Shown here: positions 25,634 through 42,500 of the stretch, one piece after another | How the letters are laid out: each line of letters opens with the position of its first letter | Numbering within the stretch: position 1 is the first letter of the stretch | Source: Torpedo marmorata | Taxonomy: Eukaryota | DNA: 64,000 nt | Direction of reading: 5' to 3' | Assembly (NCBI GenBank): GCA_977017645.1 | Contig: OZ360223.1 | Location: 74,214,001-74,278,000 of the forward strand | Program-made: the position numbers and the translations under genes | The notes under the pieces: model-generated | What the model was told of the DNA's origin: nothing | The model's database searches: none | Seen by the model: only the letters and a program-made list of their open reading frames with translations

Positions 25634-25994
25634 GGAAGGGCTCAGAAGAATACGGAACTAATGCAGTCAAATGTGACTGGCCCAGATAGCTAACTTGGTC
25701 AGCATGAATGAGTTGGGTCAAAAGTCCTTTTCTGTGGTGTCTGACTCTATGCTGATTCTTCAATGAATGATCCAGCTTTTGTTGCATGCTTCGGATGTGT
25801 TTAGTGGATCTAAACTTATTGAAATGGTAGCTTAGATAAAATGTGGCAACACCTTTTACACAGAGGAATTCATTCTAATTGCTCTCTAATGCAACACTAA
25901 TTTGTGTGATGGAACCACATTGCTGTGCACTGGAGCAGTTGCCAGGGAATAGTAAATGTCGTGCACTTACATTTTCTTCAAATGAATTCACTTG

Positions 25995-28900
25995 TGATAC
26001 AAATTCAAACCAGCAACGACAGAAGACACAATGCAAAAGGGGTAATATTGAAATTTATATTTATTAAAGACAATTAAACATATAATTTCACAACAATTAA
26101 CCCCACTATAAACGTCTATAAACACTATTCTTATCTAAAAGGTGTGTGTGTGTGTAAAGCCCAGACCATTACAGTCTGTGCCCAACCCTCATGTAAAAAT
26201 GGAAAAACTTTCCCCAAAAACCCCAGGTCAGTCATAAAAACAAGTCAGTCCCAAAAATACAGTCCACAAAAATTCACTCTCTATGTTCAGGGTCCAAATT
26301 CAGCTCTGTGTGCTGGCAAGCAGCACTTCTTAATAAACGTTGGAGAGAGACAATGTCTGTTTATGCTTACGAATACTTGGCTTGCTTTTCTTCTCTGATG
26401 ACTTTCCCTTTTGGTGTTTTCACAAGGATTGCGAATTCAGATCCGTTTTGGATTAAGGCGTGTACTTGGATCTCACAGTCTGTTCTTCACAAAAGCTGCT
26501 CTCAACTCAGGATTTTGCTGAATCATCAAGAGGCCTTGTATTTCTCCCAGCCGTTTCCCCTGGGATACACAAGCCTGGATTTTTCTGATTCAAGAGACTC
26601 TGTGCTATTCTCCCAACTTCTTCTCTGGGATGCACAAGCCTGGATCCTGCTGAGTTCTTCCGCCTTTGCAACTCCAAAACTGCCACTGATTCAGTTTTCC
26701 ACGACTGAACTTCAGGCCTTTCTGTAGAGAGAGTTTTCTCCAGCTCCCTTTTTCAAAAGTTCCACACCCAAGTATATCTTTCCACAGTTTGTGTCCCCCT
26801 GGTGTCACTCTCCGGTAAATACAAGAAGTCCTGGGCAAGTTAACTCTTTCAGTACCAGGTACCAGTGTGTACTCCAAAAGACTTCATCCTTCCTGCTTAC
26901 CGTCCGCAGTCCAAATTTTAAGTCATGGTCCATAACACCTCCCACCCACAAAGAAAATTTTGGTCTGCAAAAACAAAATTTTGGAAATTGAGGTGTTACA
27001 ATATAAACAAAACCCACAATGTTCATCCACAAACACAAAATATGAACTATTTTCATTTATAAAGTTTAGCATCTAGAAAGACAATCAGCAATTACATTAT
27101 CTTTCACTTTCATATGTGTTATTACCAAATCATATTCTTGCAAAATTGGACTCCAATTCAACAACCGTCGATTCTTATTTTTCATTTTACAAAGAAAAAC
27201 CAATGGATTATGGTCAATATACACTATGAGTGTTTTTTGAGCTGTACAGATATAAACATCAAAGTGTTGTAGAGCCAACAACTCTTTTTCTATGGTTGAA
27301 TAATTCCTTTGATGATCATTGAACTTCTTCGAGAAGTAGGATACCGGATGGTCAATGTCCTCTTCGTTCTTCTTCTGTAACAGCACCGCACCCACAGCTT
27401 CATCGCTGGCATCCACGACTAAAGAAAACGGCTGTTCTAAATTAGGTGACTTAAGCACAGTTTGGTGGCATAACATAGCTTTCAATTTGACAAATGCTTC
27501 CTGACAACCTGTCGACCATACAAATTTTTCTCTCTTTCCAAGAAAATTTGTGAGAGGGAGCGCAATATCAGCAGTTTTTACAGAACTTGCGGTAGTAGCC
27601 AATCATTCCCAGGAACCTCCTCAGAGTTTTCTTACCAGTTGGAACAGGGAACTCGGAAATAGTCACAACCTTTGCCTCTACTGGTGCCAAATTCCCCTGG
27701 CCTACTACATAACCCAGAGAATTAACAGTCCCACGACCCTCTCTGAAACTGGTTTTATCTGTCTCCTCCTTACCCGTCAATAACCAGTACCTCTGGTAAA
27801 TGTTCAGTCTCTTTGTGCGGCACCTGTTCAAAATATGGCTTAATCATATTCACATGACAGACCTGTGTGTCTCGTCTGCGATTAGGTGTTTCTATGACAT
27901 AGGTGACATCATTAATTTTTGACTTAACTCTATAGGGTCCTGAAAATCTAGCCCTAAGAGGATTTGAATGGATGGGAAACATAACTAATACATTCTCACC
28001 AGGTTTAAAACTTCTCATCTTAGCCTTTCGATCATACCAAACCTTCATTCTCTGTTGAGTGGCCTTTAAATTCACCTTTGCCATCTCACAAGCCCGATGC
28101 AACCGATCCTTAAATTTGGAAACATAATCTAACAGATTTAAATGCACATCACTATTAATCCACTGTTCTTTTAATAATCTTAAAGGACCTCTCACCTCAT
28201 GTCCGAAAACTAACTCGAATGGACTAAAACCAAGTGATACTTGGACAGACTCCCTCGTTGCAAATAACAACAAATGAACCCCCTCATCCCAATCCTTTTC
28301 CTTCTCACAACAATAGATTCTAATCATGGTTTTCAAAGTCGAATGGAACCTCTCCAAGGCCCCTTGACTTTCTGGATGGTACGTAGAGGATACAATCTGT
28401 TTAACTTCCAGTCCATCAACCACTTGTTGGAAAACGCCTGACATGAAATTACTGCCCTGATCTGATTGAATTTCCCTTGGCAAACCTACCAAGGTGAAAA
28501 ACTTTATCATAGCCTTTACAATCGATTTTGCTTTAATGTTTCTCAGAGGAATGGCCTCTGGAAATCTGGTGGCTGCACACATAATTGTTAACAAATACTC
28601 ATTCCCCGCTTTGGTTTTGGGCAATGGGCCAACACAGTCCACAATCACTCTCGAGAAAGGCTCACTGAAAGCAGGGATAGGTTGCAAGGGTGCCACCGGG
28701 GGACCCTGATTAGGTTTACCCACCACCTGACAAGTGTGACAGGCCCGGCAAAAGCTTACAACCTCCCTTCTCAAACTGGGCCAATAAAATTGTTTTCTTA
28801 CCTTCCTTATAGTTTTCTTCACCCCAAGGTGACCACCTAAGTGTGTGCTATGAGCCAAAGTTATTATTGCATCCCTATATACTTTAGGGATCACAACCTG

Positions 28901-31900
28901 CTGCACGACTGCCCATTATTCATTGGCAGGAACATCACAATGTCTCCACTTTCTCATCAACACCCCATCTTTTTCATAATAACCCACTGGCACCTCTTTA
29001 ATCTCCTCTTCAGGGAGAATCTTATCCCTCACCTCAGCAAGATCAGGATTGTCCTTTTGCCTTGCTGTTAGCTCCTGTCGGGATAGTGACAAATCTGTGC
29101 CTTTTGGTGTCTTATCAGTGGATGGGTGTAACACAGAAGATTGCTCAACCTTTTCCAGGTGTTCTTGATTATCACTGACTTTTTCTTTCACCAAGTTATT
29201 TTCCACTGCCTTCTCTACAGTGACATTTTTCTTAGACATGGCCCTGGTTATGGCACATGCCGGATAAATATCAGAGTCTTTCTCTGACTTATCAATGACT
29301 GGCTTCGTGGTCATTCTCACTGCAGGAACTACTTTACCCTTGGCCAAGTCATTGCCTAGCAACAGTGAGACTCCTTCTACTGGCAACTCTGATCTCACTC
29401 CTATTATAACAGGTCCTTCCACCAAGTCTGAGTCCAACACTATTTTGTGCAAAGGAATGGACTCAACATCACCACCAATTCCTTTAATTAAATTCATGTC
29501 ACCGGTGTCAGTAGCTTCACAAAATTCCAAGACACTATCTAACACAAGTGACTGAGCAGCTCCAGTATCTCGCAAGATTTTCACTGGAACTTGTTTTGAT
29601 CCTGCCTTAACTGAAACAAAACCATCAGTCACAAAAGGTTTAAATATATCCCTAACTTTGTCAGTAAATTTATTTCCTTCCTGGGTGTTATGCCTCTTCT
29701 CACTCTGAATACAAGCATTAGGTGTTGCATCCTTTTCTCTCTTCTTTTTCAACACTGGACAGATTGCTAGCATATGACCAGCCTTCTTGCAGTCGTGGCA
29801 AATGGGACCCGAGTGGTTTTCCCTTATCCACTTTCTTTCATCCCTTTCCTTAACACCACTTCCAAATTTACTTTCCACTTGCTTGGGATTATCCACATTG
29901 ACCTTTTGGAATATTCTGCCTGACGTCCACTTAGGCTTGTGGGTTAAAGCATATTCATCTGCTAACTTAGCTGAATTTTGCCAAGTTTTCACCTCCTTTT
30001 CATCTAAGTATGCCTTAATATCCTCAGGAACACACCTTTTTATCTCCTCGATTATTATCAATTCTCTCAATTGATTGTAATCATTGTTTACTGCCTTAGA
30101 TGTGCACCACCGGTCAAAACACACAACCTTTTAATAGGCAATCTCTGTGTAAAATTGGGTTGCTGATCTTTTTAAATTTCTAAACTTTTGTCTATAAGCC
30201 TCTGGAACTAACTCATAAGCCTGGAGTATAGCCTTTTTCACCGTTTCATAATCAGCAGCTTGCTCCGTGGTAAGAGTAGAATAAGCTTGCTGAGCTTTTC
30301 CTTTTATTACACTTTGTAACATAAGAGACCATTGGTTTAGTGGCCATTTTAATTTCACAGCCACCTTCTCAAAATGCTGGAAGTACTTATCTATTTCTGC
30401 CTCCTCAAATGGAGGGACCAACCTAACTTCTTTACCAGCCAAAAACCCCTCAACAGGATGACAAATTTTATCTTTGTGCTCTTGTTTCCTCTCATTTTCC
30501 AACTTTATCTTTTCCAGCTCATTTATCCTATTTTTCTCCTTGTTCTCTAATTCTATTCTCTTTTGTTCCCTGGCTACCTCCAATTCTAATTTCCTTTGTT
30601 CCAATTCCATGTTCTTTCTTCGAATTCCCTGTCTAATTTCTTTTGTTCCAATTCCCTGTTCTTTTGTTCCAATTCCAATTTCTTTATTTCCAACTGTATG
30701 TTTTCAGAAGTTTTACCCTTGGGAAACTGCTCTAACACGCTCTCCTCAAACTTTTTTTCTTTTATATAGTATTTGACTATTTTTCTCCCAATCTCTGCCT
30801 TTTTCATAGATGGTTTTACAGAAGCAATGCCCAACTCTGTTGCTATAGCCACTAACTGTTCCTTTTTCGCCTTTTTTAAAAGTATCAGGTTCAGGTGATT
30901 CCAAAATATTTTCTACATCCATTGTTGCTGGTTTTTCGTTACACACACACTAGCTTTTTAATGATCTTTACAAAAGGAATGTCTTAAACCAGACTGGATT
31001 CCTTCAATTACCAAGATGTATTTTGATTCAAATCCAAGGACAAGCCCCCAATTTTGTTACAAATTCAAACCAGCAACGACAGAAGACGCAATGCAAAAGG
31101 GGTAAAATCGAAATTGATATTTATTAAATACAATTAAACATATAATTTCACAACAATTAACCCCACTATAAATGTCTATAAACACTATTCTTATCTAAAA
31201 GGTGTGTGTGTGTCTGTGTGTAAAGCCCAGACCATTACAGTCTGTGCCCAACCCTCATGTAAAAATGGAAAAACTTTTCCCAAAAACCCCAGGTCAGTCA
31301 TAAAAACAAGCCAGTCCCAAAAATACAGTCCACAAAAATTCACTCTCTATGTTCAGGGTCCAAATTCAGCTCTATGTGCTGGCAAGCAGCACTTCTTAAT
31401 GAACGTTGGAGAGAGACAATGACTCTTTATGCTTACGAATACTTGGCTTGCTTTTCTTCTCTGATGACTTTCGCTTCTGGTTTTTTCACAAGGATTGCGA
31501 ATTCAGATCCGTTTTGGATTAAGGCGTGTACTTGGATCTCACAGTCTGTTCTTCACAAAAGCTGCTCTCAACTCAGGATTTTGCTGAATCATCAAGAGGC
31601 CTTGTATTTCTCCCAGCCGTTTCCCCTGGGATACACAAGCCTGGATTTTTCTGATTCAAGAGACTCTGTGCTATTCTCCCAACTTCTTCTCTGGGATGCA
31701 CAAGCCTGGATCCTGCTGAGTTCTTCCGCCTTTGCAACTCCAAAACTGTCACTGATTCAGTTTTCCACGACTGAACTTTAGGCCTTCATGTAGAGAGAGT
31801 TTTCTCTTGCTCCGTTTTTCAAAAAGTTCTACACCCAAGTATATCTTTCCACAGTTTGTCTCCCCCTGGTGTCTCTCTCTGGTAAATACAAGAAGTCCTG

Positions 31901-32004
31901 GGCAAGTTAACTCTTTCAGTACCAGGTCCCAGTGTGTACTCCAAAAGACTTCATCCTTCCTGCTTACCGTCCGCAGTCCAAATTGTCAGTCATGGTCCAT
32001 AACA
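25995..32004 (-). mobile_element. Gypsy (Gmr1-like; integrase before RT) provirus with RT core deleted
   Basis: LTRs 25995-26937 and 31055-32004, TSD CTTG, PBS-Pro-like at 31032-31050, PPT gggtgggagg; gag CCHC (CHDCKKAGHMLAIC), PR LRDTGA, IN HHCC + DDE (27770-28906), RT end and RNase H (27066-27740). Confidence 0.95.
31032..31050 (-). promoter_or_regulatory. Primer-binding site, tRNA-Pro-like
   Basis: tgggggcttgtccttggat versus canonical TGGGGGCTCGTCCGGGAT, 4 nt inside the 5' LTR. Confidence 0.8.
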
Positions 32005-32523
32005 CTTGTCAGAAAAACAGATAAAACCAAATGATTAACAGTATTGTTCTGGCAATGCAGTGGACTTCAGTCAGTAATTACATCATCCGTGGCTAAATGC
32101 ACAGCACCAAGTTTTACCACCATATTAACTCTGGTTTTCATAAAGAAAATAGGGATGCTATGGATACATGTATGCCGTAAGGTATACAAGCGAAGACCTT
32201 GCTTATAAAGGTGGATTAAAAATTATGCTTTGGTTGTGTAACACCTTAGTCAGAGCCCACTAAGAATTCTGCATTTGGAGCACTTCGAGGAATAAACTGG
32301 ATGTGGAACTGATTTAACAGAATTGCAACTGGGTTTACAATGAAAAATAATGACAGTACTTTGCATTTAGTTGTCTCGTTGCTTGAATTAAGAACATTGC
32401 TGGATAATCTACTTGGGGTTTAAATGTTAAAAGACATCCGACAAACTATGAAAACTATTCCTTCTGATGGAGGGTCAAGTTAACAACGGTAATCTCAGAA
32501 CGAGAACCAGAATTTAAATTATA

Positions 32524-34520: not shown

Positions 34521-36306
34521 GTACATCAATAGAAGTCAGGGGCACCAATACCCTTGAGCGTATTGTTTGGGTGTTTATGAAGTATACCATGGAATGCAAT
34601 CTTGATATTATACTCATTTTAAATAAATAATTATTAAATGTTTGAAATGCAAGATTGATTGGCTAGATTTGTCTTGACCTATACCTGAGTGGGAGAACAG
34701 TTGGAAAGCGAAGCTGAGCCAAATATCAACTCAGCCATAGTTTGATTGTAGAATTCAGGATTTAATCAAAAATACACATTTTTAAAAAAATATGCGCAGT
34801 TCAAGCAATATCTCTGTGTTCTCAAATACATTTCGAATTGTGGTGGGACCCAAATTATCAGGATAGCAGGTGCACAAACTAACGTTAACTTAGATGTTAA
34901 AATGAGTCAGGACAAGTCAAAGAGCATGGAAAATCTGACAGACTTAACTGCATTTCTTTTAATGCAAGTCTGACAAGCAGAGGATGAACTCAAGGCATGA
35001 TTTGGTGGATGGAACTGGAATATTATAGTCAGAACAGAAAAGTGGCTGGGGATGGGGGCAGGACAACAGCTCAAGGTACCAGCGTACAGATGCTACAGGC
35101 AAGATAGTGGAGGAAGGAAGAAAGGTGGGAGTGCTGCAATTTTGATTCAGGGAGACATCACAGCAATACTGAGAGAGAATATTCTTGGGGATAATCCAGT
35201 GAAGCTATATGGGTGGAAAATAGTGTAGTGACTTCAATCCAACAAATATTCACTTGGAGGCTAGGTGAGATATCTGTTCTTGACGCGTTTCAATTGATTT
35301 ACTAACAAGTCCAATAGGTTCAAAAAATTTATTAACACACGATGACTTGTAGCAATCTTCAATAACTTAAATATCTTCTTTAACAAGATGTAAACAATCC
35401 TTGATAACGATGCTTAATAATGATTCTTAATAACGTCCTTTAAAACAATTCTTTATAACGTCTTTAATAACGGTCAATGAAAACTATGACAATCTCACTC
35501 ACCCTCTTCTAAGTCGCCATATTCTTATAATACTTCTTTCCTGAATAACGTGCATGCTCCACAGCGCATACTCCACCACGCATACTCCACCGCGCATACT
35601 CCAGCCACCTAACCCACTGCGCATGCGCCCGTCGTTACTCCCGCGCATGCGCAGAGTACTCAATAGGCCTAACACGGCCTACTAAACTCCACGACTCCTC
35701 CGACACCCACGGTATACATCGGAACATCACGATTAAGGTAAGACATGAGCCTTTGGCTCTTACACCGGCCCCTAATTATTATAATGAGACGCAATGTCTT
35801 AAATAATAATTACACAATCAATTACAAATAATAATAACCATATAACATTCAAGCAATATACAAATCTTCTTTCTTCTTTCTTCATAAGACCAGAGTTTAC
35901 CATCACTCTGAATCAACAAAAGTCTGTAACCTGTGTAGTGTACAAAAACAACAAAATACAGTCAGTTCGTACTTATCAAACTTCTTTTATCTTTAGAATC
36001 TTTGAGTTAGAACGTCGACCAGTAAACCTCAAATCTTCCTCAGACAAAATAGATAGTTTTTCTTTTGAATTTAACACGAGGTACTTCTTCAGCATGTCGT
36101 TTCTCATATGAAGAATTTAAACTCTTAGAACCAGAATTTGAATATTTATCTGATCCTCTCGATTTTAATAAACGAGTCTCTTTAACCTTTCCTGCATTCA
36201 AATCTTTCAATAAGAAAGTACTTCTCTCATTATCTTCCGATAAATTAATAACTTGACCTGAAGTGAAAATATCATGTGATACATTGGTACTTCTATTGTC
36301 AACCCT

Positions 36307-36577
36307 GCTGCGGTAAACTTGAAATTTTCAAATTTCTTCATCTTGCTTGTTACATTGCTGCAATGCAATATCACTTTCTTTCTGCATTGTTAGTAGCTAG
36401 GTCTTCAATTTACATTCTTGATTGTTTTCTATAGTCAGCTGTTTTGTGTTATTAACCAATAACTTGTTCTCTTTCAAAATATGAATCTCTTCCTCCAACC
36501 TTTAACATCTTGATAATGCTGAATCTCTTTCTTCAATAACTATTTATTTCTTCAATAACTTTGTCTGCTGTAACCTC
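36307..36577 (-). pseudogene. MIPOL1: MIPOL1-like coiled-coil fragment captured inside the BEL element
   Basis: VIEERDSALSRC*RLEEEIHILKENKLLVNNTKQLTIENNQECKLKT*LLTMQKESDIALQQCNKQDEEI*KFQVYRS; about half identical to recalled vertebrate MIPOL1. Confidence 0.75.
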
Positions 36578-36844
36578 TGAGCTACAAAATCTACTTTCAC
36601 ATTTGTTCTCAGTCATTTGCTTTATTCCTGCCTCAGATTCAATTACACAGGAATGATCACCAGTATTATTTGCAACATCTTCTAATACTTCATTTTCATC
36701 CATTTCTGATGAAAATAATTCCTTCAATGTTGTGTTAAATACCTTTGATTTATTTTCATATTGATCTATTTTGTTTTCTTCAAAAGTGAATTTCTTATTT
36801 ACAATCTTTTGCTGTTCCCTTAACTCATCAAATTTCACAACCAA

Positions 36845-39201
36845 AATTCTGTTAACATTTATCGCTAACTGCTCCTATGCAATATCATTATTTCTTTCCA
36901 ATGGTCCATTAATTGTCCAACCAAGCTTGGTTCTACTCCATATTACTTCTAGTGGTTCCAAAACCTTTGGTACATCTGAACCAATCAGCATTTCTATCTC
37001 AGAATTAACATCAGGTAAATAAACCTTCCACAGATAAAACAAATGAGAGATATCATTTTGATGCAAATGTTTCCTCCATGCACAAGCATAGTCTTCTGAG
37101 TATATAAACTTGGAAGATCACAACATTTTTCGTCATGCAATCCAGAAACCTCTAATCCTGAAACAATGCTGGTTTCAACGAGCTTTTCTTGTCCCATGGT
37201 TTTCAACATAATTCTTGACCTTCTTCCTTGAATATTAAGTTTGTTCATTAGTCCCACCATGCAAAAAGATGCAGTGCTGCCTGGGTTGAGAAATGCGTAT
37301 GTATGTACTGTTGCATTCCTGTTCTTGATCTTGTACAGGCACTATTGAAAGTTTGCAGTTATCCACACCAGCCCCAGTAAGACCACTTGTCTGAACCGAG
37401 GTTATAACATTGTTTTCTGATGTTTCCTTTGTTTCTATTTGCTCCTTTTCCAATTCCTTGTTTCTTTGATGGATATGCAAAATTATAGGATGCTTCAAAT
37501 TGCATATGTTACAGTTAATTCACTTCTCGCAGTTTTTACTGATGTGCCCTTTGCACAAACAGCTAAAACATATTCCATTTTCCTTTAAGAAAGCGATCTT
37601 CTCATTATGTTCCTTCTTTTCCAACTGTAAACACATTTCCAAAGCATGTCCACCTTTACAGAACAAACAACTCTTCTCATTAGTCAAACTTTCCTTTTCC
37701 TTATTTACTTTACCTTTTTCTTTATTTACACCTGACACATTAGTAGCAAAAGTACTCCTTTTCAATTTTGGACTAGGCTGTGAGTTAGACCTCCATACAT
37801 CTTTGTTCCCCATTGAATTGTCTCTGGTATTTCCATATATGGGATCTGTTTCAATGTACACCTGTCGTTGAAGAAAATCTACCAAATTCTTTAAGGTAGC
37901 TCGTTGATCGTAATTTTCTTGTAAATCACAAGCCAAATTTCTCCATCTATCCCACATCTTGTAAGGTAATTTATCTAAGATAATTCGCATATTAGCAAGC
38001 ACGTCAAGCTCACGAATATTATCAATATCTTCCATGGCATTACAACATCCTCTTAAAAAGAGAGTGTATGCTTGTAGAGCCTTTACATCATTCGATTTTA
38101 TTGATGTCTATTTAAGAGCTTTATCCATATTAGCTAAAGCAATTTGATGCTTGTTGCCAAAATGCTGTTCTAGTAAAAACTTAGCTCTTTCTAATCCTCT
38201 TTCCGTGGACATGTGTTTTGACAACTCTTTACAAGTTCTCTTGGATGTCCTTCTGTGAACATTTCCAAATAATAAAGAAATTCATCAGGGTCTTGCCATT
38301 TATTTTCAATATTGCTTCTAAAAGATCTCATGAACGCTTGGTACTGAAGTGGATTACCATCAAAAGTTTGAATCTCTTTCTTGGGCAAAGAAGAGAGAGA
38401 CTGTAACTGAATCAATGATGCAGCGATTTCATTTTGTCTTCCTATAGATGATAATACATTGCTCTGTTCACCGCCTCTTGTTACAAGTAATGATCTGGAA
38501 ACCTCACTGGTGTAGTTTCTCCCGTATTTCTGATGCTTGACTTGAATGCCAAAGAATCTGCATCGTTTGACTGAACCCACGTCGCCGCCTTGTCTTCGGA
38601 TGTTAGCACTGGTACGTGACTTGATAACACTATGCTCTTGAAGGCTTTGTCCTTGTATTTGCATGTCTTGTACCCGTGGTACTAAAATATCTACCTTTTT
38701 GGTTGATTTATTTTCCTGTGGCTCTTTTTTAAAATATAACTTCTTATCATCGCACACTTTAGATAATTTACTCCGAGCACCAGACACCATTGAGCCTTCT
38801 AATACCTTTATTTTGGCTCTGGCAATAGCAATGTTTGCTTCCAGCTCCTGCTGCTCCTTTCTCTGCCTTAGCTGCTTCTGTTCTTGCCTTAGCTGCTGCC
38901 TCAGCTGCTCCTCTTTTTGCCTTAGCTGCTGCCTCAGCTGCTCCTCCTTTTGCCTTAGCTGCTCCTCTTGTCCTTCTAAAATATGTTTATCCTTAAGCAA
39001 ATTTTGTTGCGCAAGAAGAGTGGCCAAGTCAACTTCAACCTTTATACGTGACGATGCAGAACTTGAAGTGTAAGAAACTCTGGAGCTCGAACCAGAAGAA
39101 CTTTGTTTGCTTCTCCTGCTTTCAACATTTGAGACACTGTCATATGCTTGTATTTCGTCCTGCAGGTCAGATGTTGTCTTCTTACTTACCTCTTTCTCCA
39201 A
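36845..39201 (-). pseudogene. BEL/Pao gag-protease, frameshifted
   Basis: ORF-track pieces 38191-39201, 37520-38035, 37235-37498, 36994-37260 and 36875-37066 carry BEL gag and aspartic protease motifs. Confidence 0.88.
38864..38970 (-). repeat. Coding tandem repeat (~33-bp unit) in gag
   Basis: Encodes QEEQLRQKEEQLRQQLRQKEEQLRQQLRQEQKQLRQ. Confidence 0.85.
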
Positions 39202-39529
39202 TTTGAATTGTACATCTTTTCACTTCATCCTCTTCGTTTTCTTCATCACCATTTGATGACACATTTTCAGCCATTTCCACATTGCTGTCTTCATGTTCAG
39301 TCATTGTCTTCTGCAATGAGTTTGCAATGTCTTCATACCCATCAACCGAACCCGCTGCCTCTTCTACCTTTGCCAGCTTCAGTCTTGCAAAGAGAATACT
39401 TTTATTTCCACTTGTATCTAGTTTATGTCGCTTCAATTTTTCTTTGAGATCCGCAACCTTCATGTCTTCAATACGATGTTCCTCAACAGCAACATCAGCG
39501 ACTGCTGCGTCAGCTGCTGCTGCGGCCAT
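39202..39529 (-). pseudogene. SAP-domain (SAFB/SLTM-like) N-terminal extension of gag
   Basis: MAAAAADAAVADVAVEEHRIEDMKVADLKEKLKRHKLDTSGNKSILFARLKLA followed by an acidic tract; ATG at 39529. Confidence 0.8.
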
Positions 39530-42500
39530 TTTACTCGTCTTGTTCCACCGTCCTTCGAGAATACACAACACTAGCCAAATCAACAGTCAATAATATCGCT
39601 GATTTTCAAGAAATGGTTTCTCCAACGTATTTATAGGACACTTTGCAATAAGATTAGAAGCTCTAAATCCCTCTCTGGCTGTTACTCATGGCAGATGGAT
39701 GTGAATTACAAACTGCCCCTAACTCGAGGCATTTCCAAAATGGCCGCCATTTTATTTTAAATATCAGTCCAAAGCACAGAGAGCTTATTCTATCTTCTTT
39801 CCTTCCATTTTCTGTTCCAAACAATAAGTTTTCATTGACTAAATTGTAGTGACTTCAATCGAACAAATAGTCACTTGGAGGCTAGGTGAGATATCTGTTC
39901 TTGACGCGTTTCAATTAATTTACTAACAAGTCCAATAGGTTCAAAAACTTTAACACACGATGACTTGTAGCAATCTTCAATAACTTAAATATCTTCTTTA
40001 ACGAAATGCAAACAATCCTTGATAATGATGCTTAATAACGATTCTAAATAATGTTCCTTTAAAACAATTCTTTATAACGTCTTTAATAACGGTCAATGAA
40101 AACTATGACGATCTCACTCACCCTCCTCTAGGTAGCCATATTCTTATAATACTTCTTCCCTGAATAACGCGCATGCTCCACCGCACATACTCCACCGCGC
40201 ATACTCTACCGCACATACTCCAGCCACCTAACCCACTGCGCATGCACCTGTCGACACTCCCGTGCATGCGCAGAGTACTCAATAGGCGTTGCACGGCCTA
40301 CTAAACTCTGCGACTCCTCTGACACCCGCAGTATACATCGGAACGCCGCAATTAAGGTAAGACACGAGCCTTTGGCTCTTACAAATAGAAATAAGAAGGG
40401 GTAAGTACTTTGAATAGTCAGCAGCAGTTAGAGGGGCAAATCTGTCGGGAGATTGCAGACAGCTGTGGGAATAACAATGTCATAACACTTGGTTACTTCA
40501 ACTTCCACCCCATCCAAAGGGCCTGGATGGGGTGGAATTCATCAAATGTGTCCAAACAATATGTCGACATAAAGAGGGTGCAACATTGGATCCTCTAAGG
40601 AAATATGGGAGGGCAAATGATGGAGATGCCATTTGGATAGCACTTTGGAACTAGTCACCAAAATTAATTGTAAAATAAATATGGAAAAAATAGGACTGGT
40701 CTGCAATTTCCAATCCTAAATTTGGGTGTCTAATTTGGATGCCATTAAACAGAAATGTGAAAAGATTAACTGAAATAGGCTGTTTTCAGTTAATGAGGCA
40801 TTTAGCCCATTAATTATACCCAATGACTTGGTCTCCAAATTCTTGTGGCAACAAATTCCACAGATTCACACTCATCACTGTTTGAAAGGGACTTCCTTTT
40901 ATTCTGAAGCTTGCCCTCTTGCTCTAGACTCTCCTACAACTGGAAACAACTTTTCCACGCCCACTCTATCTTGCTGTTTCAAAATTTGGAATGTTTCAGA
41001 GATTCCCCCTTATCCTTTTAAACTCCAATGAGTATAGGCCCTAGGATTTCCAAATCTGCTACTTCTTTGCCCATTCTCCCAGCCTATCCAAGTCCCTCTG
41101 GAGACTCCCTACTTCCTCAACACAACCCACTCCTTCACCTCTCTTCGTATCGTCCATAAACTTGGTCACAAAGCTGTCAAAGTGTGACAAGTTGCAGACC
41201 CAACACTGACGCCTGCTGAACACCACTAGTCACTGGCAGCCAGCCAGAAAAAGGCCTCCTTTATTCCCACTCTATTCCTGCTACCTGTCAGCCAATCTAC
41301 TATCCATGCTGGTACCTTGCCTGTAATAACACATAATTCTACCTTGTTTAGCAGACTCATGTGTGGCACCTTGTCAAAGCCTTTCTGAAAATCCAAGGAA
41401 ACAACATCCACTGACCCTCCTTTGTCCGTCCTCAAAGAACTCCAACAGATTTGTAAGCCAAGATCTCCCCTGAAGGAAACCTTGCTGACTTCAGCCAATT
41501 TTATCTTGTGCTTTCAAGTACTCTGAAACCTTTACCTTGAGAATTTTGCCAACCACTAAAGTGATGTAAACTGGTCTACAATTTCCTGGCTTTTGCCCTC
41601 TCCCTTCTTAAAGAGTTGAGTGACAAGAGTGGATTCATCATTTAGGCAATTGGAATCAAGCCAGTCCTTTAAGCAATGTAGAGGATGTAGGAGTCCACTT
41701 AAGAGGGATAATAAAGAGGTAAATGAGGAGGTATGAGATGGCTCTGGCAGATAAGATTAAGGAGAATCCTAATAGATTCTGAAGTATACTAAAGGTATAA
41801 GAGCAATTGGAGAAAGAATATAGCCCTCTAAAGATAATCAAAGTTGTTAATGTGTGGAGCCACAGAATGTGGGGAAGTCCTGAACATGTATTTCTCATGT
41901 GTATTTACTGTGGAAAAAGACATGGATATTCGGGAACCTGGGGAAGTATATTGCCATGTATTGAAGAGAGACCCTGTTACAGAAGAGGAGGTGCTTGAGG
42001 TCTTAAAACACACAAAGTTAGTAGATAAATGTCGGGGCCTGATCAAGCATATCCTCCGACATCATGGGATGCTCAAGAAGAAATTGCAAGAGCATTGGCA
42101 GAGATATTTTCATCATTATTAAACATGATTGAGACATCAGAAGACTGGAGGATGGCTAATGTTGTGCCATTATTTAAAAAATGCTGCTCAGACAAGCCAG
42201 GGGACTACTGGCCAGTGAGCTTAACGTCAGTTTTTGGTAAGTTACTGGAGGGGATTCTAAGAGACTGAAAGCCAAGGACTGGTTAGAGACAGTGCATGGG
42301 ACATCATGTCTCACAAATATGACTGAGTTTTTTTGAAGATGTGATGAAGAAGATTGATGAGCACAGGGTGTAAATGTTGTCTACGACTTTTGAAAGGCCT
42401 TTGACAAGATCCCCGCATGGTCAGCTAGTCCGGAAGGTCAGATCGCATGCATCCAGGGTGAGCTAGTCAATTAGATATAGTGTTAGTTTTATGGTGGGAG

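Follow-up and report, generated by a model that had tools for sequence, protein, structure and literature searches.

A non-autonomous BEL/Pao element family of the electric ray Torpedo marmorata carries spliced pieces of three host genes, including a MIPOL1 back-splice junction that likely derives from a circular RNA

The window analyzed here, a stretch of 64,000 nucleotides of Torpedo marmorata DNA (assembly GCA_977017645.1, contig OZ360223.1, positions 74,214,001 to 74,278,000), contains a BEL/Pao-type LTR element of 5.16 kb on the minus strand (35224–40383), flanked at both LTR ends by an identical 5-bp target-site duplication (left copy 40384–40388, right copy 35219–35223). Read in its own direction, the element begins with a 539-bp 5′ LTR with TG...CA ends (39845–40383), followed by a gag and protease region of BEL/Pao type (36809–39586) with an N-terminal SAP domain (E 1.1e-9), which in this copy is interrupted by several stops and frameshifts. 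Next come a spliced BRCA1 piece (36546–36814), in which an exon end is joined (36700|36699) to the start of a large central exon, two MIPOL1 segments (36308–36541 and 36192–36307) and, by mapping to the host gene, a remnant of Elongin A (ELOA) comprising parts of two exons (35999–36196). A purine-rich tract lies ahead of the 541-bp 3′ LTR (35224–35764), whose ends again read TG...CA and which is identical to the 5′ LTR at 498 of 538 bases (92.6%). Both LTRs are present and part of the internal ORF is replaced, the arrangement by which LTR-mediated retrocopies are recognized (Tan et al. 2016, PMC5131818). Elsewhere in the window we found a lone LTR of the same family (256–867), roughly 77% identical to the LTRs of the element, and a second LTR element (25989–32024), whose repeat pairs D3, D9 and D14 are spaced by about 5.07 kb; it has domains of RNase H and integrase, and its gag matches the SCAN domain (E 3.3e-5).

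Of 6,618 candidates in a family search with the Pao Peptidase_A17 domain, 150 were scored, and 11 of these lie in open frames of more than 2,000 codons. In most of 20 such pol-bearing loci, LTR, gag and protease correspond to those of the window element as far as position 36809, where the match, 80–86% identical over gag-protease DNA, stops; homology resumes only at the integrase tail. One of these relatives (L124) holds SAP, RVT_1, Peptidase_A17, rve and DUF5641 within a single 2,134-codon frame. About 3.2 kb of pol is absent from the window element, RT, RNase H and most of integrase being replaced by host-gene pieces. An autonomous BEL/Pao element has these enzymes of its own; the window element has LTR, gag and protease in common with the full-domain elements but not this part of pol, and is therefore a non-autonomous BEL/Pao LTR element.

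The initial annotation had placed a MIPOL1 coiled-coil fragment at 36307–36577, on the basis of a minus-strand frame from 36540 with three stops, and we recovered that frame as given. The assignment to MIPOL1 is well founded: the frame of an open sister copy returned nine matches, all nine named MIPOL1 (best E 7.8e-35, 65% identity), the frame of the window matched shark MIPOL1 in a small database (E 3.5e-23) and positions 36541–36192 are identical to the genome's own MIPOL1 exons at 298 of 350 aligned bases. The 79-codon fragment itself matched nothing in Pfam or PDB, a blank that is uninformative, since shark MIPOL1 likewise goes unrecognized by the local copy of Pfam. The limits of the fragment, however, had to be redrawn, as MIPOL1 runs on past 36307 to 36192 in the form of an earlier exon, while 36577–36546 is BRCA1-derived. 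The proposal that each stop lies one C>T change from a sense codon holds for two of the three, but host alignment and sister copies contradict it for the first. The frame had been taken to be open at insertion, and it was indeed open in the family: 20 of 29 sister loci, chosen by similarity, are open over the same 79 codons, the others carrying one stop (8 loci) or a frameshift (1 locus). Likewise, the fragment is intronless as described, and the match crosses exon-exon junctions at which introns of 29 kb and 78 kb in the host gene are gone. The annotation did not contain the BRCA1 and Elongin A pieces that flank MIPOL1, the in-frame fusion to gag-protease or the thousands of copies reported below.

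We read the host MIPOL1 gene over 400 kb (G000:C40), with the exons matching the captured exon 7–9 piece located within 64492683–64385712. Exon numbers are our own, and exon borders were set from GT/AG in this genome together with isoform and contig breaks. Each of exons 3–9 is preceded by AG and followed by GT, and together they splice into one open frame. The borders are confirmed by run X5, from a relative and presumed to be RNA by guess, in which contigs break at the join base described below and have exon 10 sequence behind it and exon 2 sequence ahead of it. At exon 3 the host gene has a tandem acceptor (64591881), a site at which a single residue distinguishes the shark isoforms P0001 and P0002; the captured join uses the upstream AG.

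In the window, the first MIPOL1 segment (36308–36541) opens with the end of exon 7, passes into exon 8 at 36507 and into exon 9 at 36402, all spliced and colinear, and is followed by bases 1–116 of exon 3, as aligned to the host exons, from its first base at 36307 to 36192. The last base of exon 9 is thereby joined to the first base of exon 3 (36307–36308, minus strand), exactly where the match in the initial annotation had ended. This join (36308|36307) is exact at the host GT donor after exon 9 and the AG acceptor before exon 3, two sites that lie 206 kb apart in the host gene. Capture from ordinary mRNA, as first suggested, is thus not borne out, the MIPOL1 exons being non-colinear at exact splice sites. 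Such a non-colinear join at a donor and an acceptor is the hallmark of circRNA-derived retrocopies (Dong et al. 2016, PMC4897178). Of 95 aligned rows, among which one copy is counted twice, 92 have the two exons contiguous, the exceptions being L032, L050 and the truncated L191; in a first alignment the join was contiguous in 52 of 54 rows. Longer copies (L045) continue from exon 3 through exon 4 into exon 5. Detection of the parent circle in RNA data is a further mark of such retrocopies (Dong et al. 2016). Here the host circle was not observed: none of the runs recorded as RNA contained the host gene, and three contigs of run X3 that bridge the join are indistinguishable from element copies.

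An exact and in-frame join of this kind could arise without back-splicing if an ancestral MIPOL1 had carried a tandem duplication of exons 3–9, later lost, so that a normally spliced mRNA held the junction. We regard this as extremely improbable, given that host exons 2–9 each occur once at 100% identity within the 400 kb, that six named orthologues have the two pieces in normal order (piece 2 precedes piece 1, the reverse of the element) and that a duplication of 206 kb would have to have vanished. A reverse transcriptase jumping backwards on ordinary MIPOL1 mRNA, at a microhomology that happened to coincide with two exon borders, is only slightly easier to accept and still very unlikely. The join does show 3 nt of microhomology, template switching is plainly frequent in the element and a similar caveat is named in the available text of Dong et al. 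(PMC4897178). Nevertheless, of the 12,764 possible backward joins that have 3 nt of microhomology or more, only 9 (0.07%) have both ends on exon borders, and the six template-switch ends of the cassette (into BRCA1, between BRCA1 and MIPOL1, between MIPOL1 and ELOA, and out of ELOA) all lie inside exons. This contrast, a join exact at splice sites among switch ends that fall mid-exon, is among the grounds for reading the template as a circle.

A circle of exons 3–9 would measure 780 nt and would be without a stop over three laps. The captured MIPOL1 sequence lies entirely within these exons, has no poly(A) tail and ends mid-exon 5 against ELOA, in agreement with the confinement to the exons of the circle used as a criterion by Dong et al. 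2016. No match to MIPOL1 exons 2 and 10 was found in element copies. A covalent MIPOL1 circle is therefore the likely template, although short of proof over a linear exon-repetition RNA, which also fits because only some 590 of 780 nt, less than one lap, were captured. The same exact join would result if two MIPOL1 pre-mRNAs had undergone trans-splicing or exon repetition, and a polyadenylated exon 9-3 RNA of this sort could then have been captured. We nonetheless find such a linear template unlikely: the absence of exons 2 and 10 from the captured sequence is predicted by a circle and not required of a linear RNA, and back-splicing is in general the commoner source of such non-colinear joins than trans-splicing or exon repetition.

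The gene content on either side of MIPOL1 was established in the same manner. The 143 codons upstream of the MIPOL1 piece match BRCA1, with two matches among 526 candidates, one to BRCA1 of Narcine (E 1.8e-42) and one to a protein with RING and BRCT domains (E 7.2e-25). The host BRCA1 gene (G000:C61) has the corresponding exons at 25497377–25497229 and from 25488548, and the captured part crosses exon borders. In the window copy the BRCA1 piece is shortened by a deletion at 36546–36554 of about 210 nt carried by most sisters. Microhomology at the BRCA1-MIPOL1 join amounts to 8 nt at the young-tier deletion and 2 nt at the old-tier join. Copies of the older tier, described below, carry up to four BRCA1 exons before MIPOL1 and up to five spliced Elongin A exons after it; in one of them (L180) Elongin A is recognized both by PF06881 (E 6.8e-17) and by the human Elongin-A chain 8oev_M (E 2.8e-38). 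The host Elongin A gene lies at G000:C41. A second, more distant Elongin A-like gene (G000:C25, 175318134–175337565) is not the donor, as it is only 68–78% identical to the captured DNA. About 12 nt between MIPOL1 and ELOA are assigned to neither gene. Overall, the cassette contains 11 colinear exon joins and one back-splice from three unlinked host genes, and the BRCA1, MIPOL1 and Elongin A pieces are all in their native frame and in frame with gag-protease. For an ELOA exon missing in some copies, exon skipping was considered and rejected, since the last bases of the exon remain and point to a deletion. Two further observations concern BRCA1. A Narcine isoform (P0010) is without the RING domain and starts with residues (1–185) that may resemble a retrotransposon gag, and in the 25488548 region three codons are common to element copies and Narcine BRCA1 but lost from host BRCA1, so that the copies preserve an older state of that gene.

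To estimate the abundance of the cassette we counted exact patterns in the genome. A 25-nt pattern across the young-tier join gave 5,840 matches (reversed control 0), and of five copies located by position, one of them that of the window, three contain it; a 20-nt pattern that reproduces both host exon ends gave 239 (control 0). These counts suggest a total of roughly 10,000 copies, a rough figure that haplotype contigs may inflate. The 30,503 candidates of a first pass were rejected as copy numbers. Searching with the first part of MIPOL1 exon 7 brought to light a tier of older copies, which is 93–96% identical to host MIPOL1, compared with 81–88% for the window's tier. LTR pairs have a median identity of 94.8% in the young tier (n = 16, 92.0–99.7) and 91.4% in the old tier (n = 4). 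Switch points are shared across copies, which is the sign of further rounds of retroposition applied by Tan et al. 2016. In a MIPOL1 protein tree, 11 element copies group as a single clade (97), nested with host and Narcine MIPOL1 in a larger one (100) and apart from sawfish and stingray, which bears out the predicted grouping with chondrichthyan MIPOL1. The copies are equally close to host and Narcine, and from this topology we infer a single capture in the electric-ray lineage, probably near or before the split of host and Narcine. A BRCA1 tree was dropped for dating, because its deep-node supports were 10–57 and one row had 8 residues. Element-like contigs also occur in runs from three organisms, and in X5 they include the BRCA1-MIPOL1 join of the old type.

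The two tiers also differ in their relation to pol-bearing relatives. Old-tier gag-protease is 73–79% identical to today's pol-bearing copies, as against 80–95% for the young tier, and the young-tier 5′ join has 6 nt common to the helper and the BRCA1 exon; on these grounds a further template switch appears to have transferred the cassette from one helper lineage to a newer one. As to the capture itself, we consider it highly probable that template switching brought copies of a MIPOL1 circular RNA and of two mRNAs into a non-autonomous BEL/Pao element that a helper then spread. In such a process the reverse transcriptase of an LTR particle would have switched onto a co-packaged MIPOL1 circular RNA (exons 3–9) and the two mRNAs, presumably inside the particle, and the enzymes for the spread of the product likely came from the pol-bearing relatives. 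The fuller scenario, which we hold to be reasonably probable, has the MIPOL1 circle packaged in an ancestral electric ray, copied together with BRCA1 and Elongin A mRNA into one frame, later taken over by a newer helper lineage and expanded into a large family, with the frame kept regardless of the amino acids.

This last element of the scenario was examined by scoring the variants in each alignment column of 63 young and 29 old copies, after removal of three partial rows; many of the young copies had been chosen for similarity or long frames. Open frames crossing the joins measure 500–1,354 codons, and 14 of the 92 copies examined exceed 500. Gag-protease is under purifying selection (synonymous to non-synonymous changes 77:85 when common to at least four young copies versus 144:508 when single, P 4e-10) and the amino acids of the cargo are without constraint (28:105 shared versus 106:372 single, P 0.81; 35 synonymous and 93 non-synonymous changes from old to young tier, P 0.24). 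Stops in the BRCA1 and MIPOL1 pieces account for 0 of 216 lineage-level changes versus 36 of 807 single changes (P 2.5e-4), and among 16 copies selected by their position or by the junction pattern, none of the stops was common to more than two. Weighing against a clean picture are shared stops in gag-protease (one) and in the remnant of Elongin A (two), and the bias in the choice of copies. All eight indels common to at least 19 copies are multiples of three, one being probably a deletion on the host side. Indels are in frame in 12 of 19 events found in at least three copies versus 42 of 117 single events (P 0.04), a modest excess overall, with 1 of 9 for two-copy events. The pattern fits selection for an open frame and not for cargo amino acids. 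The frame may be kept because an early stop would cost RNA stability or packaging, if packaging is coupled to translation, the cargo serving as an open-frame spacer.

The capture could also have occurred as proposed with the cargo retained for the action of its protein, for instance an Elongin A BC-box bringing a cullin ligase to the gag polyprotein. The in-frame state of all three pieces, the Elongin BC-binding region retained by old-tier copies and a count of 4 synonymous to 6 non-synonymous changes between host and old-tier commonest codons in ELOA are in keeping with it. On the other hand, cargo amino acids drift like single mutations, as the P values of 0.81 and 0.24 indicate, and the far more numerous young tier has lost the BC-binding region and much of exons 3–5 by deletions, so that we judge retention for protein function quite unlikely and prefer maintenance of the frame. 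A functional chimeric gene would be transcribed, translated and constrained at the protein level; the cargo is without amino-acid constraint, and no annotated chimeric protein was present among the best 120 of 1,058 matches, which had lengths of 303–966 only and each covered at most 36% of the query.

Several known systems resemble this family in part. Replication-defective oncogene-transducing retroviruses fuse gag to captured spliced host sequence and need a helper. The ray element has the same gag-cargo fusion, spliced host sequence and helper dependence, but is without env, and its cargo, being without amino-acid constraint, gives no sign of selection for the activity of its protein. Maize Bs1, according to the available text of two reports (PMC13317346, PMC5131818), is likewise an LTR element in which three unlinked host genes have contributed pieces to one chimeric frame. 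In contrast to the ray cassette, which is known from DNA sequence, counts thousands of copies, has all pieces in native frame and owes one of them to a likely circle, Bs1 is described there with 1–5 copies, one piece out of frame, and transcription and translation. Capture of partial mRNAs by LTR elements, including several genes and Pao carriers, is already established in the available text of Tan et al. 2016 (PMC5131818), which describes a chimera of two genes in BATUMI, a Pao element, and a mouse case with four genes; the word "circular" is absent from its main text. The ray family shares with these retrocopies the replacement of internal ORFs by partial mRNAs, multiple parental genes, further retroposition rounds and BEL/Pao carriers, may also share the short microsimilarity at the switches, and differs from those described there in its amplification to thousands and its pattern of frame-only selection.

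The closest precedent for the junction is offered by the mouse circRFWD2 pseudogenes, 33 high-confidence copies with a back-splice join, for which the available text of Dong et al. 2016 (PMC4897178) notes the LTR link as an enrichment and calls the mechanism mysterious. Both cases present a non-colinear join at back-splice sites, confinement to the exons of the circle and LTR sequence in the flanks. Unlike the 33 mouse copies, those of the ray number at least 5,840, contain the join inside whole elements with both LTRs, a target duplication and an identified helper family, carry the piece in frame with gag-protease alongside two other genes, and occur in a cartilaginous fish. The route of circular RNAs into genomes was left open in that text, where LTR enrichment was only noted; with a back-splice join within complete elements and a known helper family, the entry route can be read off. 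In the literature covered by our search, largely open-access papers, we found nothing on this element, on circMIPOL1 or on a circular RNA captured in a BEL/Pao element.

If the proposed origin is true, the join is a datable fossil of a circular RNA and direct evidence that LTR particles reverse-transcribe circles, and selection for translatability alone acts on captured cargo. The split between constraint on the frame and constraint on the amino acids would then constitute a natural experiment on the needs of a non-autonomous LTR RNA. The join also predicts a specific, stop-free host circle of 780 nt that is datable by tree. Thousands of BRCA1, MIPOL1 and Elongin A coding copies could feed small-RNA pathways against those genes, and the copies will complicate the mapping of reads, the annotation of genes and the calling of circular RNAs in electric rays. 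Finally, four copies of the element lie within the introns of host MIPOL1 itself (G000:C40, 64340k, 64408k, 64487k and 64495k), one of them oppositely oriented; three fall within the exon 3–9 span and could pair as inverted repeats.
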